Origin: a virus
Lineage: Duplodnaviria; Caudoviricetes
Virus record (IMG/VR): IMGVR_UViG_3300032030_000026
Span: 1 to 64,000 of that record
DNA length: 64,000 nt
Reading direction: 5' to 3' (one strand)
In this document: piece after piece, positions 3,699 through 44,369 of the stretch
Layout: each line of letters begins with the position of its first letter
Position numbering within the stretch: position 1 is the stretch's first letter
The notes under the pieces: generated by a model
What the model saw: the letters and a program-made list of their open reading frames with translations, nothing else
Database searches by the model: none
What the model was told of the DNA's origin: nothing
Program-made: the position numbers and the translations under genes

Positions 3699-4117
3699 CA
3701 GAACAAGAAAAACAACTACTTATAAAAGCACTCTGCAGATATTTTCCGTATGGAGTAATATGTAGTGTTGTACATAAGAAGGATGGTAGATCAGTAGAAG
3801 AAGATATGAAATTGTCCGGGATGTTTGAAGACGGTAATTTCTACTTCTTGGACGAAATGGGTTCCACTTATTCATATAAATATATTCCTTACCTCCGTCC
3901 TTTAACAAGTATGACGGAAGAGGAACATAATGAATGGTTTCAGTATTACCAAAATGCAGAAATGGAAGAACTGAATAAAAGTGGTGACTATTTTAAGGCG
4001 GCAACATCTGGTGATAATGCTAAATACGATTGGCTCAATGCTCATTACTTTGACTATATGGGTCTTATCAAGAAAGATCTTGCACTTGAAGCTCCTTTTG
4101 AAATGTATAACTGTTAA
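3695..4117 (+). CDS. hypothetical protein, paralog of 1814-2176
   Basis: Shared terminal motifs; ATGA overlap with upstream gene. Confidence 0.7.
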   Translation: MTEQEKQLLIKALCRYFPYGVICSVVHKKDGRSVEEDMKLSGMFEDGNFYFLDEMGSTYSYKYIPYLRPLTSMTEEEHNEWFQYYQNAEMEELNKSGDYFKAATSGDNAKYDWLNAHYFDYMGLIKKDLALEAPFEMYNC

Positions 4118-4121
4118 AATT

Positions 4122-4331
4122 ATGACTATGGGACAATGTTATACATATACTGATTGCTGTGGGGCTACATATTTTCAGTCTTATCCGTTTAGCAAAAAAC
4201 AAATCGCAAAGATTGAAAAAGAAGCGAAAAAGATCCTTGATGAACGTGTTGAAGATATTACTAATGAAATAAACAAGATGATCTTGGAAAAAATTATAAA
4301 TAGTGAAAATTATGGGGATCAAAGACGTTAA
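4122..4331 (+). CDS. hypothetical protein, paralog of 530-787
   Basis: Shared YTDCCG...EINK.ILE.IINS. Confidence 0.6.
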   Translation: MTMGQCYTYTDCCGATYFQSYPFSKKQIAKIEKEAKKILDERVEDITNEINKMILEKIINSENYGDQRR

Positions 4332-4536
4332 ACCAAAATATAGAATAGGTGACACTTTCAGGAGGATCGGAACTCGTGGGTATTCTTGGTGGAAGGTAGA
4401 AGAGATTATGCATAGTGCAACAGAGACGGTATATGTTCTCAAGTTGATGCCTTTTGGAAAAGATGTCATAGAGGCCGGAGAGTCTGAATTGTGCGAAAAC
4501 TGGTATAGTACAACAATTAGTAATTCATTCCGATAA
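4312..4536 (+). CDS. hypothetical protein
   Basis: Short ORF with PKYRIGD start motif. Confidence 0.5.
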   Translation: MGIKDVKPKYRIGDTFRRIGTRGYSWWKVEEIMHSATETVYVLKLMPFGKDVIEAGESELCENWYSTTISNSFR

Positions 4537-4552
4537 TAAAAATGTTTATACT

Positions 4553-4975
4553 ATGACTTTGGAAGAATTTTCAACAAAAAGAAAGGAACTTTGGCGAGAA
4601 CTATTGCAACTTGAGGATAGTTTTGTGAAAGAACATGCCCTTTATAAAGCAGGTGATGTATTAAAAGTATCATTTCCGCGTGGAGATAGACATATAACTT
4701 GTCATTGCGCTATTACAAATGTTGGCATTGGTGATAGAGATGGTATTTTTCTAAGACCAAACCATTTTGGCGGGCATATAGTATATTATGCGGTATATGC
4801 CTATCTTGAAGACGGAAAATGGAAAAAGGACTATGGAGCAGGTTCTGTTTGTCATTTGGACAATCTTAATGGATTTTCTGGGGAAAGTAAATTTCCCATA
4901 GTATGTGGATATGAGATGGACATTGAAGAATTAAAAAACATTTCTATGGAAGTAGTGGGAAAAATAACATTATAA
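4553..4975 (+). CDS. hypothetical protein
   Basis: 140-aa ORF in operon. Confidence 0.6.
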   Translation: MTLEEFSTKRKELWRELLQLEDSFVKEHALYKAGDVLKVSFPRGDRHITCHCAITNVGIGDRDGIFLRPNHFGGHIVYYAVYAYLEDGKWKKDYGAGSVCHLDNLNGFSGESKFPIVCGYEMDIEELKNISMEVVGKITL

Positions 4976-4986
4976 CATTATAAACA

Positions 4987-5463
4987 ATGAACTACATAAA
5001 GATTACATATAATATATTTGTTGTAAAGAACCAAAACGGCTTCAACAATGCTTTATATGACTTCATGAAAGTCGATGAAGGTTGTTTTTATTCCAAACAA
5101 GAACTGAGAAGCATGGTGACTGATTTTCCGAAAAGTTATCCGGCGGCAGTTATTTTCCACAAAGAATATGACATCGGTAGAATATCAGTCGAAGTACTAG
5201 ATAAAAACGAAGTATCCGAGCTACTTGAATCTTTTGAAAAATTTAATGTTAAAATAAAAGATAATGATATGGATATAAAACTAGAAACAAATCAAAAGAA
5301 TGAACACAACACAGCTAAGTGCGGATACTGCTGTACTGTTTTTGAATATGATGCTTCTGAGTTAGAAGAAGAGGAGGACCGCGACATGAGAGGATATCAT
5401 TATTACTATTATGCTAAATGTCCAAAGTGTAGAAATAGAATTTTAGTAAAAGAATTGATATAA
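4987..5463 (+). CDS. hypothetical protein with C-terminal zinc ribbon
   Basis: CGYC ... CPKC. Confidence 0.6.
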   Translation: MNYIKITYNIFVVKNQNGFNNALYDFMKVDEGCFYSKQELRSMVTDFPKSYPAAVIFHKEYDIGRISVEVLDKNEVSELLESFEKFNVKIKDNDMDIKLETNQKNEHNTAKCGYCCTVFEYDASELEEEEDRDMRGYHYYYYAKCPKCRNRILVKELI

Positions 5464-5508
5464 TGAAAAATATATAAAGATATTAGAGAAGAACTAAAAA
5501 ATATCACA

Positions 5509-5712
5509 ATGAAGTATGATGAATACATGGACAAAGAGTGTATCCCGTTTTGCGATGCATTGAATGAGTTGCCCAGTGTGACCACATTCGAATCATGCTG
5601 CGGTCATCTCCAAAGACGATATGTTGTGTATCTTTATACAGACAACCCATATTCGATGGCGGTTATTGCCCGGACATTTGACAGGAGATACCATTTTCAT
5701 AACGGAAATTAA
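5509..5712 (+). CDS. hypothetical protein, possibly truncated
   Basis: TTFESCCGH motif. Confidence 0.5.
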   Translation: MKYDEYMDKECIPFCDALNELPSVTTFESCCGHLQRRYVVYLYTDNPYSMAVIARTFDRRYHFHNGN

Positions 5713-5718
5713 AAATTT

Positions 5719-5973
5719 TTGAGTAATTTAAAAGAATTCAAATACATGAAAAAGACAGAGGATGTGCCGGAAGGATATGTTTACGTACCTTGGATTCCAC
5801 ACACAACAAAGGCATTTATCAACGGTATTCAGGTATGGGATCGCCGATGGTGGAAAAACATACTTTGCAAGATAAACTGGTTTTTACACTTCAAGCAGCG
5901 AAAAACACACAAAAAATATGCTAATATTAATATAAATGGAGTGTTTAATATAAGTAAAATATTAGAAGAATAA
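5719..5973 (+). CDS. hypothetical protein
   Basis: ORF at end of run; start may be ATG 5746. Confidence 0.45.
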   Translation: MSNLKEFKYMKKTEDVPEGYVYVPWIPHTTKAFINGIQVWDRRWWKNILCKINWFLHFKQRKTHKKYANININGVFNISKILEE

Positions 5974-8136: not shown

Positions 8137-9468
8137 ATGGAAAACTCAATAACTCTTGTAGGAAAATATACTAAAGCCGAGATTTTTGCCAAAACCGTAG
8201 AAGATGGCGTATATGGTCAAGTGTACGACATCATCAACAATCCCGCATTCTTGGGTAAGAAAGTGGTCCTGATGCCGGATGTGCATGTGGGAGCAAGCGG
8301 ACCCTGCGGGCTGGTAGCGGAAATCGGGGACTGGATTTGTCCGGAGCATATTGGTGTGGATATCGGATGTTCGGTGACTATGATGATGTTAGATGGATTT
8401 ATTCCTGAAGATAAATTAGTTTTATTAGAGCATCGAGTCAAACAATCAGTCCCTATGGGATTCAATCTTCATGAACATACTGTCATAGATGAAAAAGACT
8501 TCTTCAAGTTCTTAGGTACGGAATTCATGAAGGCTAGAACTTTATGGCCTGAAGTTTTCGATATTGATCATCTTCCTAATGTAGTTACGGAAAAATGGAT
8601 CGGCAAGCAACTTAAAAAACTTGGGATGGAACCCGGAGTTTTCTATAAATCATTAGGAACCATTGGTGGAGGAAATCACTTTATTGAATATGGAGAATCC
8701 AAATTGAATGGTGCTATCACTATGCACTTCGGGAGCCGGAATCTTGGAGTCAAAGTCTGTAAGTACTGGATGAAGAAAACAACCAATCCTATGACAAAGG
8801 CGGAAGCTCAAAAAGTTGTGGCGGAATTCAAAAAGGAGTGGAATAGAACTCATAAAAGTGATATGTGTGGATTCAACGAAGCTCTTAAGAAAGAAATGCA
8901 AGAGCGTAAGAAGAATTTTATCAAAGGCTACCTTACAGGTGAAGACTTGAAAGGATATCTGGCGGATATGGTATTTGCTCAAGCGTATGCTAAATACAAT
9001 CATAAGACAGTCAAAGACATCATTTCTAAGATTCTTTCAAAGATGCATCTTCCTAAGATTGACAAGATGATCATCTGTACGCACAACTATATAGATTTCC
9101 GGGATCGCTACATCAGAAAATCTTCTATATCCGCACACGAAGGAGAGGAAGTCATTGTACCATTGAACATGAGAGATGGAACTGTGTTCGGTGTTGGAAA
9201 GGGAAATAAGTACTGGATGAATTCTTGCTCACACGGTGCCGGTAGAAAGATGTCCAGAAGCGAGGCCAAGAAAAACATCACTTTAGAGGAGTTCCAAGAA
9301 TCTATGCAAGGCATTGTGACTACTTCAGTAGATCAAACCACCATTGATGAATCCCCGATGGCCTATAAGGATACGGATGAGATCATTGATGTCATACAAG
9401 ACACTATAGATATATTGGCGGTATTCATTCCTAAAATATCTTGGAAAGCTTCCGAGACTCCCGAATAA
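8137..9468 (+). CDS. rtcB: RtcB RNA ligase
   Basis: MPDVH, GVDIGC, LGTIGGGNHFIE, HNY, SCSHGAGR, DESPMAYK. Confidence 0.95.
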   Translation: MENSITLVGKYTKAEIFAKTVEDGVYGQVYDIINNPAFLGKKVVLMPDVHVGASGPCGLVAEIGDWICPEHIGVDIGCSVTMMMLDGFIPEDKLVLLEHRVKQSVPMGFNLHEHTVIDEKDFFKFLGTEFMKARTLWPEVFDIDHLPNVVTEKWIGKQLKKLGMEPGVFYKSLGTIGGGNHFIEYGESKLNGAITMHFGSRNLGVKVCKYWMKKTTNPMTKAEAQKVVAEFKKEWNRTHKSDMCGFNEALKKEMQERKKNFIKGYLTGEDLKGYLADMVFAQAYAKYNHKTVKDIISKILSKMHLPKIDKMIICTHNYIDFRDRYIRKSSISAHEGEEVIVPLNMRDGTVFGVGKGNKYWMNSCSHGAGRKMSRSEAKKNITLEEFQESMQGIVTTSVDQTTIDESPMAYKDTDEIIDVIQDTIDILAVFIPKISWKASETPE

Positions 9469-32149: not shown

Positions 32150-33298
32150 ATGCCAATCAAGAAAAGTGAAATCAAGACGGAGCTGGATCAGCTCAAATAT
32201 GACTACATGAGAGCCTATCAACGGATGTGGGAGGCTCGGAAACGCGGGAAGGATCTTAAAGAATATGAAAAATGCCTGGCTGGAATCAAGGAGAAGATGG
32301 ATAAGATCACCGGACTGGCTCCCGGACACCGCACCGTCCATGAACTAGATCGTAGTGAATATAAACAAGAGTTTGTGCCGGATAAAGATTATCTGGATTC
32401 TATGCCGGATCTTCAAAATTCCCAATTCATCGGAACCCCCATCGATTTTGTAGGTATTGAAGGAATGAGGATTCCTTTGAAGATCAAGCAGAAAAAAGGA
32501 GGAACCCAAGAGGTAGTCTGTGATGTCACCGGCACGGTCTCTTTAGATGCGGCCAAACGCGGTATCAATATGAGCCGCATCCTCCGTTCTCTACAGAAGA
32601 CCACTAAAGGGGCCACTACTTTCGACATCAACGATCTGGAAAAAGTACTGAAAGCCTATCAGAAAGACTTAGATACTTTTGATGCTCACATCTTAGTGAA
32701 CTTCCCATACCGCCTTTGGCAGCCTAGTCTGCGCAGCGTGGATGAAGACGGCGAGCCTAACGGAGGCTGGCAATATTATAATGTCACTTTTGACTGTAAC
32801 TTGGATGTCGACGGAGAGTTCAAGAAGATTATCTGGTTTGATTATGTGTATTCTTCCGCCTGCCCCTGTTCTACGGAACTTTCCATGCATGCTCAGGAGA
32901 CCCGCGGAGTATATGCCATCCCACATTCACAAAGAAGCGTAGCTCGTATAGGTATCGAGATGGGTAACACACTAGTCTGGATTGAAGACATCCTGGCTAT
33001 GTGCAAGAAAGCTATCCCTACCGAAACCCAAGTTTTTGTCAAGAGAGAGGACGAGCAGGCCTTTGCGGAGATGAATGGTGCTAATACTATTTTTGTAGAG
33101 GATGCCGTCAGGAAGCTGAGTGTCGTCTTGGAAGACAATGCGGCGGTGATGGATTATAAGATTATTTGTTCTCATTTTGAATCATTACATAAATCCAATG
33201 CTATCTCGGTTATTACTCGTGGTCGGAGAAGAGATGGGGGAATATCTATTTTCAATCATCATGCTCCACTTGGAGAATGGAGATCTTTAAAGGTGTAA
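32150..33298 (+). CDS. folE2: GTP cyclohydrolase IB (FolE2) with N-terminal extension
   Basis: RGINMSR, SACPCS, PHSQRS, VKREDE, FVEDAVR, ESLH. Confidence 0.93.
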   Translation: MPIKKSEIKTELDQLKYDYMRAYQRMWEARKRGKDLKEYEKCLAGIKEKMDKITGLAPGHRTVHELDRSEYKQEFVPDKDYLDSMPDLQNSQFIGTPIDFVGIEGMRIPLKIKQKKGGTQEVVCDVTGTVSLDAAKRGINMSRILRSLQKTTKGATTFDINDLEKVLKAYQKDLDTFDAHILVNFPYRLWQPSLRSVDEDGEPNGGWQYYNVTFDCNLDVDGEFKKIIWFDYVYSSACPCSTELSMHAQETRGVYAIPHSQRSVARIGIEMGNTLVWIEDILAMCKKAIPTETQVFVKREDEQAFAEMNGANTIFVEDAVRKLSVVLEDNAAVMDYKIICSHFESLHKSNAISVITRGRRRDGGISIFNHHAPLGEWRSLKV

Positions 33299-34995: not shown

Positions 34996-35070
34996 AGGGA
35001 GATCCTCTAATCGGTTTTAGGAGACCGGTCTGATACACCGGCAATCCGAGTTCGAGTCTCGGCCTCCCTA
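34996..35070 (+). tRNA. tRNA-Ile(GAT)
   Basis: Cloverleaf; CCGGT-CTGATAC-ACCGG. Confidence 0.9.
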
Positions 35071-35193
35071 CTATATGACCGGACATTTGGGGTACTATAT
35101 GAAAGTGTCATTATGGCCGGGGAAATCCTCGGCGAGAGGGTGGAAAGGATGAAAAGAGTGTCGAAGTTGCAAATTCGATGACTGCTGAGTAGT

Positions 35194-35280
35194 AACCGTG
35201 AGAAGAGTCTGATCAACCTCCAAAGAGTCGGCCGCCTGTTGGCATGAGTAGTATACCGGGTTCGATTCCCGGCGCGGTTC
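35194..35280 (+). ncRNA. tRNA-like RNA (acceptor stem and T arm, no canonical anticodon arm)
   Basis: AACCGTG/CGCGGTT stem; CCGGG-TTCGATT-CCCGG. Confidence 0.5.
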
Positions 35281-35366
35281 CCTATAGGTTGACATCGAAG
35301 TACAAGGTGCAAGCAATGAGGTGTAATGGGGAGAGCCTCACGTTAAACAAAAACCCTCCCGGCTAT

Positions 35367-35441
35367 GGGCCCGTAGTTCAGCCTGGTAGAACGCCTGCCC
35401 TGCAAGCAGGATGTCATGGGTTCAAATCCCATCGTGGTCCA
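35367..35441 (+). tRNA. tRNA-Ala(TGC), C33, bulged acceptor stem
   Basis: G3-U70; CCTGC-CCTGCAA-GCAGG. Confidence 0.8.
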
Positions 35442-35479
35442 CTGAGGTCCCTCGAGGACTTAACTAAAACTGTTTTAGT

Positions 35480-35595
35480 TGCTTGGTAGCTTAAATAGAA
35501 GCAATTATACCTGATCGGCTGACGAGCCGATAGAGTGGAACTTGTAGAGCTCCGTTAGTGAACGGAAGGTGCGAGTGCGAGTCTCGTCCAAGCCC
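35480..35595 (+). ncRNA. tRNA-like RNA with insertion after the D arm
   Basis: GCTTGG/CCAAGC; variant T loop TGCGAGT; TCCGTT-AGTG-AACGGA. Confidence 0.45.
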
Positions 35596-35599
35596 TAAT

Positions 35600-35673
35600 G
35601 GGTGTATAGTTGAACTGGTTTACAATGCCGGCCTGTCACGCCGGTGGTCCGGGTTCGAGTCCCGGTACACCCG
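35600..35673 (+). tRNA. tRNA-Asp(GTC)
   Basis: CCGGC-CTGTCAC-GCCGG. Confidence 0.92.
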
Positions 35674-35679
35674 CACATC

Positions 35680-35752
35680 GCCGATATAGCTCAGCAGGGA
35701 GAGCATCCGATTCGTATTCGGTGGGTCGAGGGTTCAATTCCTTCTATCGGCT
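35680..35752 (+). tRNA. tRNA-Thr(CGT)
   Basis: CCGA-TTCGTAT-TCGG. Confidence 0.85.
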
Positions 35753-35856
35753 CTATAAGGTGTAAATCAATCTCTTTACCCGCACCTGAAGACGCATATC
35801 TTCTCTGGTATAAAGAAGGGGGCAGAGGTCACGGCATCGGAAAGCGGTGCCAATTT

Positions 35857-35930
35857 GGAAAGGTAGCTCAGTTGGTTAGAGTGCCGGAACGTTAAATCCG
35901 GGGACGTGGGTTCGAATCCCGCTCGATCCG
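35857..35930 (+). ncRNA. tRNA-like RNA with 8-nt anticodon loop and weak acceptor stem
   Basis: Canonical D and T arms; CCGGA-ACGTTAAA-TCCGG. Confidence 0.55.
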
Positions 35931-35944
35931 CTAAAAATAAACAC

Positions 35945-36018
35945 TGCGGAATAGGGAAGAGGTCCATCCCGCAAGGCTCATAACCTTGAAATCGCAGGTT
36001 CGAATCCTGCTTCCGCTA
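35945..36018 (+). tRNA. tRNA-Met(CAT), probable initiator
   Basis: CAAGG-CTCATAA-CCTTG; 1:72 mismatch. Confidence 0.85.
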
Positions 36019-36026
36019 CTAATTAT

Positions 36027-36099
36027 TGGGGATTAGCTCAGTCGGTAGAGCGGTGCACTGTTAATGCAATGGTCGTGAGTTCGAGTCTCACATCCCCAG
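36027..36099 (+). tRNA. tRNA-Asn(GTT)
   Basis: TGCA-CTGTTAA-TGCA. Confidence 0.9.
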
Positions 36100-36179
36100 C
36101 AGCGGCGTGGTCTGAACCGTGACCCGTTCAAAAAGAAAAAATAAAAATTGCGGTGGCGCTCTGGAGAGACAGGGAATTT

Positions 36180-36256
36180 TGGGCTATAGCTCAACGGTAG
36201 AGCACCCGTTTAGACATTAGTGAACGGAAGACGGTGGTTCAATTCCACGAGTCCAA
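36180..36256 (+). ncRNA. tRNA-like RNA with 12-nt anticodon loop
   Basis: Canonical D arm; CCGTT-TAGACATTAGTG-AACGG. Confidence 0.6.
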
Positions 36257-36314
36257 CAGGTCTTGGAGATTGTAGGTTTCCCGCCAAGCGATCTAAAGTG
36301 AGGAACCTTCTAAT

Positions 36315-36399
36315 GGGAGTGCTGCTCAGATGGTGGATGGGCAACGGTCTGTAAAACCGTCACAGAGAAACACAGGAGGTTCGAATCCTCCCACTCCCA
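36315..36399 (+). tRNA. tRNA-Tyr(GTA)
   Basis: ACGGT-CTGTAAA-ACCGT; long variable arm. Confidence 0.9.
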
Positions 36400-36408
36400 C
36401 AATATTTT

Positions 36409-36481
36409 GGAGGAGTAGCTCAGCAGGTAGAGCGAAGGACTGAAGATCCTTGCGTCGGGGGTTCGATTCCCTCCTCCTCCA
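36409..36481 (+). tRNA. tRNA-Phe(GAA)
   Basis: AAGGA-CTGAAGA-TCCTT. Confidence 0.92.
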
Positions 36482-36561
36482 CAGCCGGTAAGTTTTGACA
36501 CAGCTTACTTTTCAAAAAACCGTGGCGTTCGTGAGCCTTTGTGGTGAAAAGCTCTCAATAT

Positions 36562-36633
36562 AGGTCTGTAGTGTAATTGGTAGCACACGTGACTCCAAAT
36601 CTCGGAGTATGGGTTCAAGTCCTGTCGGGCCTG
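36562..36633 (+). tRNA. tRNA-Trp(CCA)
   Basis: CGTGA-CTCCAAA-TCTCG. Confidence 0.88.
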
Positions 36634-36642
36634 CAAAATTAT

Positions 36643-36748
36643 TACGATATGGTGTAATGGTAGCACACTCCTGTAGTGGGACCGGTGACGGCCGGATAAG
36701 AGTCATTCAGATGGCTAAGTAGTATTGGTTCGAATCCTTTTATCGTAT
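36643..36748 (+). ncRNA. 106-nt tRNA-like RNA with expanded anticodon/variable region
   Basis: TACGATA/TATCGTA acceptor; D arm GTGT-AATGGTA-GCAC; T loop TTCGAAT. Confidence 0.6.
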
Positions 36749-36754
36749 CAAAAT

Positions 36755-36827
36755 GGCGCGTTCGTCTAGTTGGTTAGGACGCCAGGTTTTCAACCTGGAA
36801 ACCTTGGATCATACCCGGGAGGCGCTA
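36755..36827 (+). tRNA. tRNA-Glu(TTC), atypical T loop ATCATAC
   Basis: CCAGG-TTTTCAA-CCTGG. Confidence 0.75.
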
Positions 36828-36833
36828 CTAAAT

Positions 36834-36906
36834 GGCCCTGTCTGCTAACAGGTCAGGCAACCGGATTCTCAATCCGGAAATCAGAGTTCGAGTCTCTGTG
36901 GGGCTA
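36834..36906 (+). tRNA. tRNA-Glu(CTC)
   Basis: CCGGA-TTCTCAA-TCCGG. Confidence 0.88.
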
Positions 36907-36917
36907 CTAGATATCTT

Positions 36918-36993
36918 GCCCCGGTAGTTCAATGGATTAGAACAAATGACTACGGATCATCAGATGGGGGTTCGAATCCTCTCTGGGGTACCA
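36918..36993 (+). tRNA. tRNA-Arg(ACG), CCA encoded
   Basis: ATGA-CTACGGA-TCAT. Confidence 0.9.
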
Positions 36994-37012
36994 TTATGAC
37001 TATTATGACTAT

Positions 37013-37084
37013 TGGGATGTAGTGTAATGGCTACCACAGCTGACTCTGGATCAGCTAATCTGAGTTCGAATCTCGGCATCCCAA
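37013..37084 (+). tRNA. tRNA-Gln(CTG)
   Basis: GCTGA-CTCTGGA-TCAGC. Confidence 0.9.
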
Positions 37085-37242
37085 CACGAAAGCCTTGTGA
37101 AATGCGCGCGAGTAGCAAGGATCGTACCAGTCTTGGATAGGCGATGCGAAAGCATCGGATAACAATGATCCGACACCGGATCGTAAGTGCCGGTGGGAGT
37201 TTTCCGGTATAGTTCTCCGGTAATATAAACTATACCATCCAT

Positions 37243-37316
37243 GCCCCGGTAGCCCAACTGGCAGAGGCACATGTTTCAGGTACATGACAGTGACGGTTCG
37301 AATCCGTCTTGGGGCA
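37243..37316 (+). tRNA. tRNA-Leu(CAG), short variable arm
   Basis: CATGT-TTCAGGT-ACATG; variable loop ACAGT. Confidence 0.88.
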
Positions 37317-37327
37317 CTAAAAATAAT

Positions 37328-37401
37328 GCGGTAGTAGCTCAATTGGTAGAGCGTCTGCTTGCCATGCAGAAGGCTTGCGGGTCCGAGTCCCGTCTACCGC
37401 T
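37328..37401 (+). tRNA. tRNA-Gly(GCC), T loop TCCGAGT
   Basis: TCTGC-TTGCCAT-GCAGA. Confidence 0.88.
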
Positions 37402-37405
37402 CTAT

Positions 37406-37479
37406 GCGATAGTAGCTCAGTTTGGCAGAGCGTCTGCCTTCCAAGCAGAAGGTCGTGGGTCCAAGTCCCATCTATCGCT
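37406..37479 (+). tRNA. tRNA-Gly(TCC), T loop TCCAAGT
   Basis: TCTGC-CTTCCAA-GCAGA. Confidence 0.88.
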
Positions 37480-37498
37480 CATATTATCAAGTAGTTAT

Positions 37499-37576
37499 AG
37501 GGTAGTAGTTCAGTTGGTAGAACGCCTGGTTTGGGTCCAGGAGGTTTTTTCGCAGGTTCGAGCCCTGTCTACCCTA
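37499..37576 (+). tRNA. tRNA-Pro(TGG), enlarged variable loop
   Basis: CCTGG-TTTGGGT-CCAGG. Confidence 0.85.
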
Positions 37577-37602
37577 CTGATTATCAATTACTTACAAGAA
37601 AT

Positions 37603-37685
37603 GGAGAGTAAATTCTACGGGGTAGGAGCCAACCTGCTAAGTTGTGCGAGTGTAACAGCTTGTGGATCGAGACCACTGCTCTCCG
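37603..37685 (+). tRNA. tRNA-Ser(GCT), 8/4 fold
   Basis: 8-bp acceptor GGAGAGTA/TGCTCTCC; 4-bp T stem; loop CTGCTAA. Confidence 0.8.
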
Positions 37686-37914
37686 CTTATCGAAATATAC
37701 AGTAAACGGGATAAACACGGGCAGCAGTGTGTTCCTTCGCCAACCATGGGAGGTGGGTAAATAACACCCTGTATATGACCAGCTGTGATAAATTAAAAAG
37801 GGGTTATATTAAAGCTTCCAAACCAGAACCCCTGAGCCCTTAACTGTGTGAGACGTCACCGGGGCGACAGTCCATTGGGTAATTCCATAGGAGCGCTGTT
37901 AGGGAAGCAATTAT

Positions 37915-37986
37915 TGAGCTGTGGTATAATTGGTAACACGTTGGGTTTTGATCCCAAAGTTCTGGATTCGAGTTCCGGCAGCTCAA
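37915..37986 (+). tRNA. tRNA-Gln(TTG)
   Basis: TTGGG-TTTTGAT-CCCAA. Confidence 0.88.
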
Positions 37987-37990
37987 CGAA

Positions 37991-38068
37991 GATGCATTAG
38001 TTCAGGTTCGAGTCCTGACTTTGGCAAGTGTTTGCTGAGGTGCGAGCAATAGGTAGACAGAATGCATC
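37991..38068 (+). ncRNA. circularly permuted tRNA-like (YrlA-type) RNA
   Basis: Order: GATGCATT, T arm, acceptor 3' strand, 7-nt linker, acceptor 5' strand, D region, AATGCATC. Confidence 0.65.
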
Positions 38069-38071
38069 CAT

Positions 38072-38144
38072 GACGGAGTGTCCGAATTGGTTTAGGTGAC
38101 TGGCCGCAACCCAGTCTATGCAGGTTCGAGTCCTGTCTCCGTCT
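38072..38144 (+). tRNA. tRNA-Cys(GCA), C33
   Basis: ACTGG-CCGCAAC-CCAGT; U73. Confidence 0.85.
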
Positions 38145-38167
38145 CTTGAAAAAAATGATTTTCTTTC

Positions 38168-38228
38168 CTTAAGATTCTCTGAAATCGTTTATATAATATC
38201 ACAAGAGAGAAGTTCTTTGACATATTGG
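38168..38228 (+). promoter_or_regulatory. internal phage promoter plus rrn-type boxA
   Basis: CTTAAG-N12-CGTTTATATA, then GTTCTTTGACATATTGG. Confidence 0.65.
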
Positions 38229-38249
38229 AAAGATCATAGATAAGAAAGT

Positions 38250-38359
38250 TACGGGTTGAAATGCCGGTTCGAGCCCGGCCCTGTCCGCCATTAAGAAAGG
38301 CCTTCGGAAAATCATTCGGAGGGTGCGGGTGGGTTGACAAAGGGATAGTCTGGCCCGTA
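38250..38359 (+). ncRNA. circularly permuted tRNA-like (YrlA-type) RNA with internal CCA
   Basis: TACGGGTT/GGCCCGTA terminal stem; T arm GCCGG-TTCGAGC-CCGGC; CCTGTCC-G-CCA; linker; GCGGGTGGG; D arm. Confidence 0.7.
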
Positions 38360-38363
38360 TTTT

Positions 38364-38437
38364 GCCCTGATAGCCCAACTGGCAGAGGCCTGCGGCTTAG
38401 AACCGCAACAGTGCGAGTTCGAATCTCGCTCGGGGCA
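38364..38437 (+). tRNA. tRNA-Leu(TAG), short variable arm
   Basis: TGCGG-CTTAGAA-CCGCA; ACAGT. Confidence 0.88.
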
Positions 38438-38545
38438 CAAAGATCAGCAGACTGAATCAAGAAAAGCATAGAACAACAAAACAAAGAACAGAACGGCTGC
38501 CTCTTTACAAGTTTTCTTGAGCTGAAGGCCGTTTTAGCTGCTGAT

Positions 38546-39116
38546 CCGGATGAGGTGAAATGATATATCCTCGCAAAGCACGGACAGGATCTCGTGAAGG
38601 TCTCAATCTTATTGGAACTAGTAGATTCCGGCTTTGAAAAGGCCACAATAGTGGTAACACCGTATGGTATTATAATACACTAGTTCTGTGTAATCTGCTC
38701 GAAACACTTATATAGAAGGAGAGAGCTGGAATCTTGGGTGCCAAACATAGACGAAAGACCGAGTGATGCAAGATGGAGCCGAAGCGATAAATTATATAAA
38801 GAGGCTATCCGGTAAAGAACAATACTTGTCCCTGACAATAATATAGTCAAACAAAGATTTGATGTGCCTCAAAAAATGTCTCCGTGTTATTTGCACAGGT
38901 ACTTCTAAAAACCTCGGTTTTTGGATGATTAAATTTCACATTTTGAGAGAGTGTTATAAAAAAGGGAAAGCCGTGACGGATGGATATTCGATAGGTGTTT
39001 ATAAACACTGAAAGGAAGTATTGTCGCTTCGCCATCCACGGATGTAGCATCATGTCAGAACAAGTAAGTCTGGTGAGGTCCCTTATCCTTGCATGGCTGA
39101 AAGTTCATGTTCTTTA
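38546..39116 (+). ncRNA. large ornate ncRNA, probable ROOL RNA
   Basis: About 570 nt between tRNAs, no credible ORF; long-range helices CCGGAT/ATCCGG, ACAATACTT/AAGTATTGT, TAAAGAAC/GTTCTTTA; AGAACAAGTAAG..TGGTG segment matches ROOL as I recall it. Confidence 0.65.
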
Positions 39117-39122
39117 TTTGAT

Positions 39123-39196
39123 ATCCCGGTAGCCCAACCGGCAGAGGCACAGCGTTGAGGGCGCTGACAGTGGCAGTTCGAATCTGCCTCGGGATA
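39123..39196 (+). tRNA. tRNA-Leu(GAG), short variable arm
   Basis: CAGCG-TTGAGGG-CGCTG; ACAGT. Confidence 0.88.
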
Positions 39197-39276
39197 CTAA
39201 AAAAACCCATAGATATTACTTCTTTAGACTAACGTGTTAAAAAGCGGAACTGGTAAGAAAGTGAGAATGGGTATAA

Positions 39277-39490
39277 AAAGTCAAGAACATTCCACCAAGT
39301 AGCGTTCGGGGTAAGTGTCAGGCAAATGTCGACTTCTTCCTGGTGCGGTGTCTCGGAGCCAAAGAGCTGCCGTCAGCCCGATGAACGGTGTTGGTTATCG
39401 TGAGGTGCCATAAGGTGCAACGCAACAGTGCGGTTTGCGAAGAGCATATAACCAACGCACAGTCCGTAGCTCGTAAATTTTCTTGGCTTT
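39277..39490 (+). ncRNA. unassigned structured RNA, about 210 nt
   Basis: Closing helix AAAGTCAAGAA/TTCTTGGCTTT; internal GTGTTGGTTAT/ATAACCAACGC. Confidence 0.45.
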
Positions 39491-39494
39491 CTAT

Positions 39495-39570
39495 GGGGAA
39501 GTAGCTTAGCGGTCCAGAGCGACAATGGGTGTGACGCCCGGAGACATTGGTTCAAATCCAGTCTTCCCTG
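39495..39570 (+). ncRNA. tRNA-like RNA with distorted anticodon arm
   Basis: GGGGAAG/CTTCCCT; D and T arms intact; GGGTG-TGA-CGCCC. Confidence 0.6.
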
Positions 39571-39668
39571 CGAGAACAGCTGCTGCAACAGCTTAGTAAC
39601 TGGCGATGTCTGATATTTCAATGTGCCTTTGCAGGGGTTAGACAGAGAAGGGATCAGGTATCGAAAAA

Positions 39669-39738
39669 TTCTTATTCGTACAATCGGTTAGGACACCGGC
39701 GATGGTCGGAAATGCTGGTTCGAGTCCAGCATAAGAGT
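39669..39738 (+). ncRNA. tRNA-like RNA with a 4-nt loop replacing the anticodon loop
   Basis: TTCTTAT/ATAAGAG; CCGGC-GATG-GTCGG; perfect T arm. Confidence 0.65.
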
Positions 39739-39743
39739 CAAAT

Positions 39744-39827
39744 AGAGAGTTAACTGCGGCGGCCTGCAGGCCGGTTTCGAAAACCGTGCGAGTCCTATGG
39801 CTTGGGGATCGACACCTCAGCTCTCTG
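39744..39827 (+). tRNA. tRNA-Ser(CGA), 8/4 fold
   Basis: AGAGAGTT/AGCTCTCT; loop TTCGAAA; T loop ATCGACA. Confidence 0.82.
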
Positions 39828-39835
39828 CAAACAAT

Positions 39836-39922
39836 GGAGAGCTAAGCCGGCGGGGCTGGCCGCTGTTTGGAAGACAGTCGGAGTCTGGAAGATGGCTTGG
39901 GGATCGAGACCTCAGTTCTCCG
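39836..39922 (+). tRNA. tRNA-Ser(GGA), 8/4 fold
   Basis: GGAGAGCT/AGTTCTCC; loop TTGGAAG. Confidence 0.82.
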
Positions 39923-39987
39923 CAAACTGTGGAACTATGGAAATGTCATTCATCCACGGGTCGTCCCCAAAACAAGAATGGCATATT

Positions 39988-40071
39988 GGAGAGTTAACTG
40001 CAGCGGCCTGCAGACCGGTCTTGAAAACCGTGGGAGTATAACAGCTTGGGGATCGACACCTCAGCTCTCCG
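39988..40071 (+). tRNA. tRNA-Ser(TGA), 8/4 fold
   Basis: GGAGAGTT/AGCTCTCC; loop CTTGAAA. Confidence 0.82.
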
Positions 40072-40324
40072 CAAAGGCTTCAGAAATGAAGTTAGGTGTC
40101 CTTGGGGAGACTTATAACCTTCCGACTGTGGGAAGCCCCCACTACAGCGTACCGAGGAACGTGGACATCCTCCATTGATGTAATTGCGCAATAAGTCAGT
40201 GGAGACTTCCAAGCAAATAATCCGCACGAAAGTGCGTCAATATATTGGGCATAATGGAAAGTAGTGTGCCGTACCGCAATTCGGGGCGCGAAACCGAGTT
40301 CATCTCGGTTGTCCACCAATTTTT

Positions 40325-40398
40325 GGGCTAGTGGCGCAATTGGTTAGCGCAGATGTCTTATACACATAAGGTTGGGGGTTCAAGTCCCTCCTAGCCCA
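40325..40398 (+). tRNA. tRNA-Ile(TAT)
   Basis: ATGT-CTTATAC-ACAT; Ile-type body, A73. Confidence 0.85.
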
Positions 40399-40515
40399 CT
40401 ATGAGAAGTGTATATAAACCTCAGGCGTGCGCCTATGGCTCGCAAAATCATAGGTAGTTATCGTTTATACGTAAAACAGCGGAAGGAGCGGCCCAACCGT
40501 AAGAGGCTGCGATAT

Positions 40516-40589
40516 GGTGTTAGTAGCTCAGTTGGTAGAGTGCTGGATTGTGGTTCCAGTGGTCGCAGGTTCGATCCCTGTCTAACACA
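40516..40589 (+). tRNA. tRNA-His(GTG)
   Basis: CTGGA-TTGTGGT-TCCAG; encoded G-1 opposite A73. Confidence 0.88.
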
Positions 40590-40754
40590 CTAAAGGATTG
40601 GTTGATCCGAGGTTCAAGAAGGCTTGCTTGAGATGGCTACACAGCAGGAAATGCTTGAGATGGAAACTGTGAAGGGACAGCCATAAGTCGTGAAGTACAG
40701 TTAGATGTGGAGGTCTGCTGAAAGAAGGTGACCGTGTAGGACAATCCAATCTAT

Positions 40755-40828
40755 AGCTCGATAGCCCAACCGGCAGAGGCGACAGATTCAAAACCTGTAC
40801 AGTGTGAGTTCGAATCTCACTCGGGCTA
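40755..40828 (+). tRNA. tRNA-Leu(CAA), short variable arm
   Basis: ACAG(A)-TTCAAAA-(C)CTGT; ACAGT. Confidence 0.85.
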
Positions 40829-40838
40829 CAATATATTT

Positions 40839-40967
40839 TGGGATGTAGTCGAATTGGTAGAGATGCCCGGGATGGTCCGGGAGGTTTGCAAATAATTTCG
40901 CGATGAATAGCAAACGGCACTCATTGGCCTGAGTGTCATAATGAAGGTTCGAATCCTTCCATCCCAG
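40839..40967 (+). ncRNA. 129-nt tRNA-like RNA with two-hairpin variable region
   Basis: TGGGATG/CATCCCA; CCCGG-GATGGT-CCGGG; perfect T arm. Confidence 0.65.
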
Positions 40968-41089
40968 CTAGTATCCGGCAACCTATATGAGCCGGGAATT
41001 CGAGAATATCTCGTTAATAGGTCAAGGCCATGCCCCTTGCTAGTGGGGGTTGGAGCTCATACGAAAATGTGAGAATCACTAGCGATTTT

Positions 41090-41163
41090 GCCGATGTAGC
41101 GGAGCTGGCTTCATGCGCCGCTCTCATAAGGCGGAGACGGTGGTTCGAGTCCACCCATCGGCA
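41090..41163 (+). tRNA. tRNA-Met(CAT), elongator type
   Basis: CCGCT-CTCATAA-GGCGG; paired 1:72. Confidence 0.85.
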
Positions 41164-41181
41164 CGAAAGCGAAAAAAGCTC

Positions 41182-41253
41182 CGGCGTGTAGCTCAGTAGG
41201 CAGAGCGGGCCAAGGTACTGGCCGGGTCCTCGGTTCGAGTCCGAGTGCGTCAA
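41182..41253 (+). ncRNA. tRNA-like RNA with 6-nt anticodon loop
   Basis: GGCCA-AGGTAC-TGGCC; C1:A72 mismatch; canonical D and T arms. Confidence 0.6.
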
Positions 41254-41312
41254 AGAGTTTGCAATTACTTCGCATACGGTACCTAGCTGAGGTTTTGCAC
41301 GTTTTCTCGCGA

Positions 41313-41386
41313 GCGGAGTTAGCTCAGTTGGAAGCAGCATCCGGCTTACATCCGGAGGGTCGGGGGTTCGAGTCCCTCATTCCGCA
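41313..41386 (+). tRNA. tRNA-Val(TAC)
   Basis: TCCGG-CTTACAT-CCGGA. Confidence 0.85.
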
Positions 41387-41534
41387 CTAAAAAATAAACC
41401 TTGTGATCCCAGAGGGGTTGGTCACTTCCAGCTGGTAGGTTATTTTTCTCTTTCATACGACTGTCAAGGGGTATTATCCATCGTGCAATGACAGTCCAAC
41501 ATAAAGAGTTTTCTTAAAGGTGAAGTGACACTTT

Positions 41535-41608
41535 GGCGCTGTGGGCAAACTGGTTAAGCCGCCACTCTTTCAAGGTGGAAACTACGGGTTCGAGCCCCGT
41601 CGGCGCTA
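41535..41608 (+). tRNA. tRNA-Glu(TTC), second copy
   Basis: CCACT-CTTTCAA-GGTGG. Confidence 0.85.
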
Positions 41609-41759
41609 CTGCGGAAGCAAATCAGTAATGGAGTTATGGGGGTCTGAGTGAAAGCTCAGAATGGAGTGGCTACTCCACGTTAAATATTAAAAGTAGCCTG
41701 GTGGACTTGCCATCGGGCGGGAACACAGAAAGCCGGCGCTGCAAAGACCGGCACACTAA

Positions 41760-41831
41760 GCCGGTGTAACTCAATGGTAGAGTATCGCACTTGTAATGCG
41801 GCGGTTGTGGGTTCGACTCCCTCCATAGGCA
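41760..41831 (+). tRNA. tRNA-Thr(TGT)
   Basis: TCGCA-CTTGTAA-TGCGG. Confidence 0.82.
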
Positions 41832-41850
41832 CTCATAAAACGTTATAATT

Positions 41851-42231
41851 ATGGAAAAGAAGATAAATGATCGTAGATATACAATTCTCGGAATTCACCG
41901 AAACGGTACATTATATGGATGGGCAGAGAATTCATTTTCCTTCTCCGCATCCGAGACGCACACTCGTGTATGGGGCGCGGAATATAAAGAATTCGGCGGT
42001 CGAAAATATTGGAAGCCGAACAGAAACCAGTCCAACTGGAACTATCTCAAAAAAGTTGCTGATGATCTGACTGCAAAGAAGTTTATGAACTGCGTCTGGA
42101 GAGTGTACCGAGTCGGCAGCAAGCACTGCCCAGCTGACATAGACTTCAGAACTTGCGATCTGATGAAACATGGTAAAATAAAATACGACAAATATCTGGC
42201 GAGAAACCACAGATTCTCGCCGAAACAATAA
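41851..42231 (+). CDS. basic hypothetical protein within the tRNA island
   Basis: 126-aa ORF filling the gap between RNA genes. Confidence 0.65.
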   Translation: MEKKINDRRYTILGIHRNGTLYGWAENSFSFSASETHTRVWGAEYKEFGGRKYWKPNRNQSNWNYLKKVADDLTAKKFMNCVWRVYRVGSKHCPADIDFRTCDLMKHGKIKYDKYLARNHRFSPKQ

Positions 42232-42494
42232 CGGGCGACCCGGATAATGGGGATTGAACAGGCGGATTAGCTACCGCTTACGCAATGGCGCTTCTGAGAC
42301 GGATCTCAGAGACAAGCCGTAAAGTGCGGAACCGAAAGTCCAATGAGCTGTAGACAATCGGCGCAAGCACCAGAACTCAGGCGATGACAGTTGCAATAGA
42401 GCTCAATAAAGAGCTGCCAAGTCTGAGTCATTCTCTGACTGGACAGGCCAGTCCAAGAAGAAGCGTTCAGGAGGTTCGACTCCTCCTCGCCCGA
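42232..42494 (+). ncRNA. 263-nt RNA framed by a tRNA acceptor stem and T arm
   Basis: CGGGCGA/TCGCCCG-A; GGAGG-TTCGACT-CCTCC; TGAAC/GTTCA helix encloses several hairpins. Confidence 0.65.
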
Positions 42495-42501
42495 CTAAGT
42501 T

Positions 42502-42586
42502 GGCTGAGTGGCGAAATTGGTAGTACGCTTCAGACTTAAAATCTGATGTCCGTAAGGACGTGCGGGTTCAAGTCCCGCCTCAGCTA
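42502..42586 (+). tRNA. tRNA-Leu(TAA), long variable arm
   Basis: TCAGA-CTTAAAA-TCTGA. Confidence 0.9.
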
Positions 42587-42659
42587 CAAACAGTGGACAT
42601 TTGGAGGGAAATTGTTAAAACGTTGTGATTCGCTCATGGAAATGTCCTAACAACGTTAC

Positions 42660-42732
42660 GCGTCAGTAGCTCAGTAGGTAGAGCACATCCCTTTTAAGGA
42701 TGGGGTCCCGGGTTCGAGTCCCGGCTGACGCA
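42660..42732 (+). tRNA. tRNA-Lys(TTT)
   Basis: CATCC-CTTTTAA-GGATG. Confidence 0.92.
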
Positions 42733-42739
42733 CTTATAA

Positions 42740-42822
42740 GGAGAGCTAAATCGGCGGGGCCGATCGCTGTTTGGAAGACAGTTGGAAGGTAACACTTTGG
42801 GGATCGAGACCTCAGTTCTCCG
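42740..42822 (+). tRNA. tRNA-Ser(GGA), 8/4 fold, second copy
   Basis: GGAGAGCT/AGTTCTCC; loop TTGGAAG. Confidence 0.82.
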
Positions 42823-42827
42823 CACAA

Positions 42828-42900
42828 GCCCTTGTAGCGCAATTGGTAGAGCATCTGTTTTGTAGTCAGAGGGTTGGGGGTTCAAGTCCTCTCAGGGGCT
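42828..42900 (+). tRNA. tRNA-Thr(TGT), second copy
   Basis: TCTG(T)-TTTGTAG-(T)CAGA. Confidence 0.82.
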
Positions 42901-42917
42901 CTTATTATAATTATATT

Positions 42918-42993
42918 GGGAGTTTAGCTCAGCTGGTTCAGTAGCGTCTGCCTTACAAGCAGAAGGTCGTTGGTTCGAATCCAACAACTCCCA
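42918..42993 (+). tRNA. tRNA-Val(TAC), second copy
   Basis: TCTGC-CTTACAA-GCAGA. Confidence 0.9.
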
Positions 42994-42998
42994 CAAAG

Positions 42999-43264
42999 CT
43001 GGCGTCGTTGACGCTCCGGTGAAAGGATGTTTGGACGAGGGGTTCGATTCCCTCTACCTCCACTATTTCTTAGCTGACCAACCAAGATGTTGGAACAGTT
43101 ACGGTGGCGGAAACTTAATATGAGATCCGTCACTTGCTTATGGGGGTAATTGGTTTTGACAGCATTTGAGTAAGAAGAGAAGAGATGCCGGTGAGTGAGA
43201 ATAAATCACAAAACAACTGTTCGTCTCGCTGCTTAAGCCTAGGGCTCACAACAAGCGAGGGTCC
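42999..43264 (+). ncRNA. ssrA: circularly permuted (two-piece) tmRNA
   Basis: T arm and TACCTCC-A (43055-43062) precede GGGGGTA-ATTGGTTTTGACAGC (from 43142); G3-U70; tag frame ending VRLAA-stop (43207-43236). Confidence 0.85.
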
Positions 43265-43293
43265 GGGGAGAACCAAATCTCCCCATTTCTTTT
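43265..43293 (+). terminator. intrinsic terminator after tmRNA
   Basis: GGGGAGA-ACCAAA-TCTCCCC followed by a T-rich tail. Confidence 0.7.
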
Positions 43294-43341
43294 GTAAATA
43301 TGGAAGATTGATTTCTTATTTTTAGGTAAATAAAACATATT

Positions 43342-43736
43342 ATGGCATTTATAACTAAGAATGAGGAAGAATTCAGACAAGGTCAAGAATTTTACAAAGA
43401 TATTATTCCGCTGTTCGTAAACGTATCGTAAACGTAAAGACCAACCATGAGACTATATACGGAATATCATGTCCACAGATTAATGATGTGCAAGAAATGA
43501 TCATAAATGCACTAAAAGAGGTTACCGTGCCGTTTGAAGGTTCTATAAGTGTCGAGCTAGGCTTGCTTTCCGATAGTTCTAAGTTCGTCACAGCAACAAA
43601 GATCAATTATGATCAATGGATCCAGATTAGAAATTACAATATAGAAATTGAATTAGAGGTTGCACATGTTCTAAGCAATGAATTCTTTGCGGGATTGTGC
43701 AATAAATATCTAAAATTAATAAACAAGCTGTCGTAG
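43342..43736 (+). pseudogene. frameshifted hypothetical gene (or 1-nt sequencing error)
   Basis: ATG 43342 frame stops near 43431; another frame runs open from about 43407 to 43736. Confidence 0.45.
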
Positions 43737-43800
43737 CTCAGTTGGTAGTAGAGCGTCCTTGGTAAGGAAGAGGTCGCCAGTTCAAGTCCGGCCGACTGCT
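43727..43800 (+). tRNA. tRNA-Thr(GGT)
   Basis: TCC-TTGGTAA-GGA; several stem mismatches. Confidence 0.75.
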
Positions 43801-43807
43801 CTTGATT

Positions 43808-43881
43808 GTCTCGGTGATGCAATTGGTAGACATGCTTCTCTTAAACAGAAGATCTTGAGAGTTCGAATCTCTCTCGGGACA
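43808..43881 (+). tRNA. tRNA-Leu(TAA), short variable arm
   Basis: CTTCT-CTTAAAC-AGAAG; 5-nt variable loop. Confidence 0.85.
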
Positions 43882-43898
43882 CGAAATAAATATAAGTT

Positions 43899-44168
43899 AT
43901 GAAATCAATATTAGAATCTATTAATGAATCCGAAAAGAAATATGATAATTTCCTGAATCTTCCTCCTATAACTGAACTCGGAGACGGTGAGTATGATTGC
44001 GCTGTTTGGGGACATAGTGTTGTTTGTGATGGTAAGAAATATTATTCGGAAATTGGTATAAAGAACATTTATCCTATCAAGATGAAGATAATCATCAAAG
44101 ACGGCAATGTTCGATTTGGGGATTCCGATAATCTTCAAAGAGCGGAATTGAAAAAACTTTTCGATTAA
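43899..44168 (+). CDS. hypothetical protein
   Basis: MKSILESINES start resembles the Glu-ending leaders. Confidence 0.65.
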   Translation: MKSILESINESEKKYDNFLNLPPITELGDGEYDCAVWGHSVVCDGKKYYSEIGIKNIYPIKMKIIIKDGNVRFGDSDNLQRAELKKLFD

Positions 44169-44176
44169 TCATAATT

Positions 44177-44249
44177 GTTCTTATAGCTCAATGGATCAGA
44201 GCACGGGCCTCCGGAGCCCGGGATCCGGGTTCGAATCCCGGTAGGAGCT
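44177..44249 (+). tRNA. tRNA-Arg(CCG)
   Basis: CGGGC-CTCCGGA-GCCCG. Confidence 0.88.
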
Positions 44250-44276
44250 CTATATGACATCTATGATCTTTTCATC

Positions 44277-44350
44277 GCCTCGATAGCTCAATGGATCAGA
44301 GCAACGCCCTTCTAAGGCGAAGGTTGAAGGTTCGACCCCTTCTCGAGGTA
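44277..44350 (+). tRNA. tRNA-Arg(TCT)
   Basis: CGCC-CTTCTAA-GGCG. Confidence 0.9.
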
Positions 44351-44369
44351 CTAAAAATTAAGAATTATT

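Follow-up and report, generated by a model that had tools for sequence, protein, structure and literature searches.

A probable new family of large structured non-coding RNA in the tRNA island of a rumen jumbo phage

Complex, conserved folds have been described for very few RNAs above 500 nt in bacteria or phages. GOLLD and ROOL, two such RNAs, are encoded beside phage tRNA genes and were recently found to form RNA-only cages (bioRxiv 10.1101/2024.12.08.627333). If a third family, unrelated to both, occupied this genomic niche, it would suggest repeated evolution of big structured RNAs tied to tRNA arrays in large phages.

The stretch of DNA analyzed here (64,000 nt; hereafter the window) is part of a 115-kb IMG/VR virus record with an estimated completeness of 57%, which puts the phage genome at about 200 kb; its source is a rumen jumbo phage. 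Positions 38443-39118 of the + strand, with a conserved core at 38551-39118, were interpreted as encoding a large, stable, non-coding RNA from a family that Rfam 15 does not contain and that has no sequence relationship to ROOL, an interpretation given a probability of roughly 0.7. The core, which runs from a hairpin designated H at 38551 to the end of a closing helix at 39118, measures 568 nt, or 676 nt with an optional 5′ module included. The window RNA is a new family of the GOLLD and ROOL kind of large phage RNA, alike in kind and not a homologous family: as expected of a large ornate phage RNA, it exceeds 500 nt, contains no ORF, has a complex fold backed by covariation, is phage encoded near tRNAs, and is found in RNA libraries. 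A first-pass annotation made from the letters of the window had proposed a large ornate non-coding RNA inside a tRNA island; this was borne out by the covariation and RNA-library evidence, and the bounds given there (38546-39116) nearly coincide with those of the conserved core. BLAST searches of GenBank phage records with the window RNA and two relatives returned no match. A text search for the loop motif of hairpin H, together with inspection of a survey of 10,006 candidate structured RNAs from viruses and of a 2026 preprint, turned up no description in the papers covered.

Using Rfam and ARAGORN, approximately 40 tRNA genes and a permuted tmRNA, all on the + strand, were placed in an island at 34996-44351. 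Within it, a 684-nt gap (38439-39122, + strand) separates two tRNA genes:

38364-38438, + strand: tRNA-Leu(tag), upstream neighbor of the large RNA
39123-39197, + strand: tRNA-Leu(gag), downstream neighbor of the large RNA

The ORF list for the gap held short ORFs only, the longest on the + strand being 50 aa with a TTG start; this ORF overlaps a hairpin that the relatives are without, and alignment with the relatives revealed no conserved ORF in 38439-39122, in agreement with the earlier statement that no credible ORF is present. Located 5′ of the island, the window also encodes an RtcB RNA ligase (8137-9468; Pfam E value, 1e−56) and a FolE2-type GTP cyclohydrolase I (32150-33298; E value, 5e−63).

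The RNA family is small (about ten distinct sequences, three of them more than 88% alike), and part of its conservation may therefore reflect short divergence. All relatives were in uncultivated phage contigs of 46 to 364 kb where the length is known, with L017 and L020 coming from shorter metagenome contigs. The small protein gene at window 41851-42231 served as bait for L012, which shares 92% identity over the first 432 nt but differs by the loss of a 74-nt hairpin and by a different sequence in one arm. Scanning metagenomes with a conserved 18-mer identified L020, 88% identical to the window RNA, and, at far greater divergence, L017. Further scans, based on other invariant motifs, identified L095, L093/L096, and L108/L115, together with a distant subfamily comprising L071, L094, L092, L037, and L057/L066. 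Loci L001 to L010, found via a 366-aa flanking protein, were too distant and held no homologous RNA. The pattern TCCTTGCATGGCTGAAAG returned only a known relative and two chance matches, and is blind to relatives with an insertion at that point. Exact-motif scans of 185,579 species genomes identified no family member. When the motif of one internal element (the L hairpin, below) was searched against bacterial genome contigs, 10 matches were obtained, none of which was recognized by the family HMM, and their flanks were unrelated. Suppressor-type tRNAs (anticodons CTA or TTA, labeled tRNA-Pyl or tRNA-Stop by ARAGORN) are carried by L012, L020, L017, L029, L032, and L095, which suggests stop-codon recoding in their phages; the window's own ARAGORN list contains none.

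Comparison of the relatives resolved the RNA into the following parts:

38443-38545, + strand: optional 5′ module, with 5/8 outer pairs changed on both sides
38443-38450/38538-38545, + strand: outer helix of the 5′ module
38492-38533, + strand: inner hairpin of the 5′ module, containing CUGC...GCUGAAGG
38551-38573, + strand: hairpin H, whose short stem covaries and whose 13-nt loop UGAAAUGAUAUAU is invariant
38586-38604, + strand: hairpin P2 (AGGAUCU / AGGUCUC), with 7/7 pairs changed on both sides
38614-38687, + strand: arm P3 (GGAACUAGU / ACUAGUUCU), with 6/9 pairs changed on both sides
38688-38726, + strand: hairpin P4 with PK2; stem 38688-38691/38704-38707, in which 4/4 pairs covary
38697-38700 (GCUC, P4 loop) / 38723-38726 (GAGC), + strand: pseudoknot PK2, covarying
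38772-38809, + strand: L hairpin, a covarying stem with a 22-nt loop
38811-39118, + strand: 3′ domain, with 38811-38821/39108-39118 as its 11-bp closing helix
38856-38865/39047-39056, + strand: inner helix of the 3′ domain
38866-38952, + strand: optional hairpin of the 3′ domain, missing in L012, L017, and L095
38971-38974/39038-39041, + strand: CCGU/ACGG helix of the 3′ domain
38978-39037, + strand: variable arm of the 3′ domain
39073-39092, + strand: 3′ hairpin
38962-38967 (AAGGGA) / 39079-39084 (UCCCUU, 3′ hairpin loop), + strand: pseudoknot PK1, co-varying

Support for this fold comes from covariation across relatives and not from energy, as single-sequence folding was uninformative (folding energy not beyond chance; z = −1.5 for the + strand and −1.8 for the − strand). 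RNAalifold run on four sequences predicted 143 pairs, 36 of them compensated. A curated alignment of seven sequences contained 57 pairs in 10 helices, 93.7% paired, with 34 pairs changed on both sides; 0 of 500 shuffles were as good, and sliding the partners by 1 to 3 columns left 37 to 47% paired. The many G-U pairs in the curated helices show that it is the + strand, and not its complement, that takes this fold. Overall, at least 12 covarying helices and at least two covarying pseudoknots were identified, the middle domain being branched. Approximately 55 unpaired bases are identical in both subfamilies, which otherwise differ almost everywhere; these include the H loop, CUCGAAG, GAGAG, CGAUGCAAGA, GAAGCGAUAA, AAAGCCGUG, and GGAUGUA.

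The 5′ module, whose conserved single strand is AAUCAAGAAAAG, is present in the window, L012, L017, L020, and L093 and absent from L095, while in L037 it is split from the RNA body by a tRNA-Asn. A small lipoprotein-like ORF (MKKIAFILVTLLLLTGC...) lies inside the L037 tRNA array just before the module (L037:2850-3240, − strand). The stem of hairpin H occurs as GAGG/CCUC, GGGG/CCCC, or GCCC/GGGC. In P2, variants at 38600 (G>A) and 38603 (T>C), seen in L012 and in a bovine rumen RNA run (X5, below), turn G-U pairs into Watson-Crick pairs. The tip of P3 is branched and variable and includes a hairpin at 38642-38655. The conserved loop of P4 is AAUCUGCUCGAA, and its pseudoknot PK2 takes the form GCUC/GAGC in five members, ACUC/GAGU in L093, L094, and L037, and GCUC/GAGU in L017. 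The L hairpin keeps GAAGCGAUAA and AAAGA in its loop, with the conserved CGAUGCAAGA just 5′ of it.

Pairings proposed in the first-pass annotation fared differently. That between 38813 and 39116 corresponds to the closing helix of the 3′ domain, which covaries in at least five forms:

Closing helix, window form: 5′ strand GGUAAAGAACA, 3′ strand UGUUCUUUAUU
Closing helix, L093 form: 5′ strand AGAAAUAUAG, 3′ strand CUUAUAUUUCU
Closing helix, L108 form: 5′ strand ACAAUCUUUA, 3′ strand UAAAGGUUGU
Closing helix, L071 form: 5′ strand AAAUCACAAC, 3′ strand GUUGUGAUUU
Closing helix, L094 form: 5′ strand AAUCAUAACAAA, 3′ strand UUUGUUAUGAUU

The 38868/38947 helix is likewise real, being the base (38866-38870/38947-52) of the optional hairpin that L012, L017, and L095 do not have. 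The helix drawn between 38546 and 38812 (CCGGAU/AUCCGG) finds complementary strands nowhere but in the window, with pairing disrupted in L020, L012, and L017. For 38819/39024, a perfect 9-bp complement does exist in the window (13 of 500 shuffles did equally well), but relatives keep it only in part; this pairing may be a third pseudoknot. Three other candidates were rejected: a long-range CUCG/CGAG helix (38591-38594/38760-38763) from the first alifold model, in place of which distant sequences form the local hairpin P2, and pairings of GAAGCG with CGCUUC and of the P4 loop with CGAG, neither of which is kept in relatives.

The purine run of PK1 stands before AAAGCCGUG. Besides the window form, PK1 occurs as AAACC/GGUUU (L093), AAGUA/UACUU (L108), AAAAGUA/UACUUUU (L071), and GAAAGGA/UUCUUUC (L094). 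Each of these duplexes taken singly is at chance level, and the case for PK1 is made by its conserved position and co-variation; those of L093 and L071 were read from the sequences by eye, the automatic search having ranked other duplexes higher.

The window RNA is expressed, as it is present in RNA libraries as contigs. Part of the stretch was contained in 24 public runs (sheep, cattle, and other gut samples), only three of which held at least half of its words. In run X5, a 40-Mb size-fractionated bovine rumen RNA library, a single 630-nt contig with a depth of 16 covers exactly 38489-39120, starting inside the 5′ module. The only other cover over 38000-39700 in this run is one 151-nt contig in the next gap, leaving the tRNAs and spacers bare, a pattern unlike uniform DNA carry-over. 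In the sheep metatranscriptome X1, word depths over the RNA were about 620 to 5800, and contigs stopped at 39116-39117. An 845-nt X1 contig crosses the upstream tRNA into the RNA, so that unprocessed precursor or DNA is also present. RNA-library contigs thus end at 39116-39120, just before tRNA-Leu(gag), and in a variant from runs X1 and X3 a tRNA-like sequence again lies directly 3′ of the RNA. Given that this evidence consists of assembled contigs, it gives no more than hints of ends, strand, and level, and uncovered parts of the stretch in runs X1, X3, and X4 were not counted as evidence. The following inter-tRNA gap (39198-39494), which is represented by the 151-nt bovine contig (39318-39469) and by sheep metatranscriptome contigs, may encode a further stable RNA.

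No sigma-70-like promoter or terminator was identified on the + strand inside the gap that carries the large RNA; a promoter-like site lies at 38334-38363, just before the upstream tRNA-Leu(tag), and the conserved fold ends 4 to 5 nt from both flanking tRNAs. From the combination of no promoter or terminator of its own with a tRNA on each side, we infer that the RNA would be transcribed together with the phage tRNA array and released by host tRNA-processing enzymes. Its 5′ limit would probably be set by RNase Z or 3′ trimming of tRNA-Leu(tag), and its 3′ end probably be made by an RNase P cut at the 5′ end of tRNA-Leu(gag).

The same arrangement would also suit an element that works in cis within the tRNA operon, such as a folded spacer by which the processing of adjacent tRNAs is insulated, timed, or protected, and that has no role of its own once released. 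Wherever tRNA genes flank the RNA, which holds for all members but L093/L096, it lies on their strand, and tRNA-Leu(gag) usually follows directly (in L012, L020, and L095 as well as in the window). However, the neighbors vary, being tRNA-Trp and a suppressor tRNA on either side in L017 and tRNA-Met and tRNA-Phe in L071, while L093 has no ARAGORN-called tRNA alongside, only a tRNA-like 3′ end before the RNA and a terminator at its end. The RNA accumulates in RNA libraries where its flanks do not, and the invariant unpaired bases and two pseudoknots far exceed what a spacer needs. A purely cis-acting role is therefore considered unlikely.

A series of small RNAs, each folding by itself (5′ module, H, middle domain, and 3′ domain) and cut from one another after transcription, would accommodate the optional nature of the 5′ module, the need to excise the tRNA-Asn between module and body in L037, and the recurrence of H and the 5′ module in other RNAs. 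Against this, the 630-nt contig takes in everything from the 5′ module's inner hairpin up to the 3′ end, the covarying closing helix ties 38811-38821 to 39108-39118, PK1 links 38962 with 39084, and every member keeps the core, H through closing helix, in collinear order. Such a set of cassettes is thus decidedly unlikely, and a single large RNA remains the preferred reading.

Hairpin H extends well beyond this family. A 17-mer around its loop (window 38555-38571) matched 66 IMG/VR loci, and a CC...GG variant matched 12 more. On 52 distinct phage loci the loop UGAAAUGAUAUAU is invariant and the 3-5-bp stem covaries (covariation score of 0.593 versus 0.151 for shuffled sequences; 0/500). About half of the H loci adjoin tRNA genes, always on the same strand. 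Across 596 Gb of bacterial genomes, the 17-mer had 54 matches, no commoner than chance and usually stemless: half had no stem extension, and the few real hairpins were mostly on phage-like MAG contigs. The sole chromosomal-looking recurrence was in three related Melainabacteria / Cyanobacteria MAGs (L132, L136, and L138), where the 17-mer sits in a conserved context approximately 45 nt 5′ of tRNA-Met. H also forms the loop of terminator-like hairpins in L036, L038, L078, L110, and L113; the last of these phage contigs carries two copies with 12-bp stems in opposite orientation, 5.5 kb apart (L113:216-232 and 5715-5731).

A second family, group B, consists of RNAs of about 480 nt in phage tRNA islands (L029, L032, L045, L061, L062, L080, L056, L089, L041, and L030). 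Examples are as follows:

L029:8676-9154, group B RNA
L045:4320-4812, group B RNA
L062:9485-9980, group B RNA

Group B has the CUGC...GCUGAAGG hairpin and hairpin H in common with the window RNA. Its body is different and has its own conservation, with a terminal hairpin ...ACGCAGACCAA...GUCUAGGCGU... followed by GAGUAG, and it gave no Rfam match.

The H loop can be read as two tandem U-G-A-N-A pentads (UGAAA and UGAUA), which are invariant and in sequence resemble the T-loop pattern, in an atypical contiguous arrangement. The tRNA elbow, which is universally conserved, is the docking site of the double T-loops in RNase P, T-box stem I, and the ribosomal L1 stalk (PMC4810234). In those modules the two pentanucleotide T-loops interdigitate head to tail, stack on the elbow, and are separated by a helix, whereas the H pentads adjoin one another in a single 13-nt loop. 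Speculatively, H and the CUGC...GCUGAAGG hairpin might be the portable head of at least two unlike RNA families of 0.45 to 0.7 kb, docking a universal partner, most attractively the tRNA elbow, via a compact double T-loop; the RNAs would then serve as platforms for tRNA capture or, in the manner of GOLLD and ROOL, as RNA-only assemblies in which phage tRNAs are held while infection proceeds. This proposal, drawn from sequence resemblance, is a long shot. As an invariant-loop hairpin in dozens of unrelated phage loci, H offers a simple handle for finding the partner.

With regard to function, so many unpaired bases that do not vary would point to a partner recognized by sequence, within the tRNA or translation apparatus, or to self-assembly, rather than to a mere spacer. 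Our best guess, weakly held, is of a folded, trans-acting particle that, by analogy with GOLLD and ROOL, would engage the tRNA or translation apparatus, or itself, in the course of infection.

The same bases would also suit catalysis, and together with the large size and complex pseudoknotted fold they are usual marks of catalytic RNAs; as the phage also has RtcB and about 40 tRNAs, an RNA that cuts, repairs, or modifies tRNAs, either as a ribozyme or as the RNA component of a ribonucleoprotein enzyme, was considered. However, the RNA bears no likeness to RNase P or any Rfam ribozyme, no conserved protein partner or substrate was identified, and most large bacterial RNAs without an assigned function have not proved catalytic, making an enzymatic role very unlikely. 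For cryo-EM and for studies of binding, the window RNA offers a new target that is compact.

The first-pass annotation had called the RNA a probable ROOL, to be left as an unclassified large non-coding RNA should no significant ROOL match appear, and none did. Scans with the full Rfam 15 library (4227 covariance models), on which the comparison with GOLLD rests, found no match to ROOL, GOLLD, or any other non-tRNA family in the gap at the gathering score (99.1 bits for the ROOL model, RF03087, of 574 positions). At E values of ≤10, neither ROOL nor GOLLD matched, and 38430-39130 gave two chance-level matches only, CRISPR-DR6 (E value, 0.72) and snoR126 (E value, 8). RF03087 alone, searched against the whole 115-kb record, gave nothing at an E value of ≤10. 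Similarly, at an E value of ≤5, Rfam 15 gave no ROOL or other match in four family members (L017, L071, and L037 among them) or two group B loci, six related loci in all, and tRNA and tmRNA were the sole Rfam matches in 19 related or hairpin-bearing loci.

As a positive control, the same ROOL search identified a full-length ROOL at 180 bits (E value, 1e−40) in genome G003 (Lachnospiraceae). This genuine, full-length copy lies at L170:1501-2099 (− strand) in a Waltera intestinalis genome. None of the ten signature motifs of the window RNA family is present in it (0/10), and the family HMM run with nhmmer --max returned nothing. Of the window segments that the first-pass annotation had likened to ROOL, the two long ones had no match in the verified ROOL at up to 3 mismatches, and the others matched at chance level. 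With no model match in the window, the record, or the relatives and a control that worked, the RNA is not a recognizable ROOL.

The likenesses between the two are nonetheless numerous. ROOL is about 580 nt, was first seen in cow rumen, occurs in phages and prophages, often near tRNA islands, is abundant, and has many junctions and pseudoknots (PMC5737381; bioRxiv 10.1101/2024.12.08.627333). Its RNA-only nanocage is a homo-octamer. The window RNA matches these generic traits in its size of ~580 nt, multi-junction fold, pseudoknots, and tRNAs on both sides, and shares the rumen habitat and high abundance; such traits are insufficient for ROOL membership. They could also be those of a very divergent ROOL that the Rfam model is too narrow to recognize, and given that ROOL has few invariant bases, drift in sequence would be plausible. 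However, the window family, which has neither the covariance-model match nor the motifs of the verified ROOL, keeps many invariant unpaired bases, compared with about 10 highly conserved nucleotides in ROOL (PMC5737381), and the model that scored the control at 180 bits found nothing in the window or whole record, or, at an E value of ≤5, in the six related loci. A divergent ROOL is accordingly regarded as extremely improbable. The window RNA combines abundance in rumen RNA libraries and two covarying pseudoknots with far more invariant bases than ROOL.

Stable non-tRNA RNAs are also co-transcribed and processed with phage tRNAs in T4, namely its “species 1 and 2” RNAs, but these are about 120 to 140 nt. 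The window RNA is not known to resemble the small stable RNAs of T-even phage tRNA clusters.

GOLLD resembles the window RNA in being a large phage or prophage RNA that adjoins tRNAs and has a conserved part and a variable part (bioRxiv 10.1101/2024.12.08.627333). It differs in usually exceeding 800 nt, and the window RNA matched no Rfam family. The linker of GOLLD sometimes houses tRNAs (bioRxiv 10.1101/2024.12.08.627333), an arrangement that recalls L037, in which a tRNA-Asn comes between 5′ module and RNA body.
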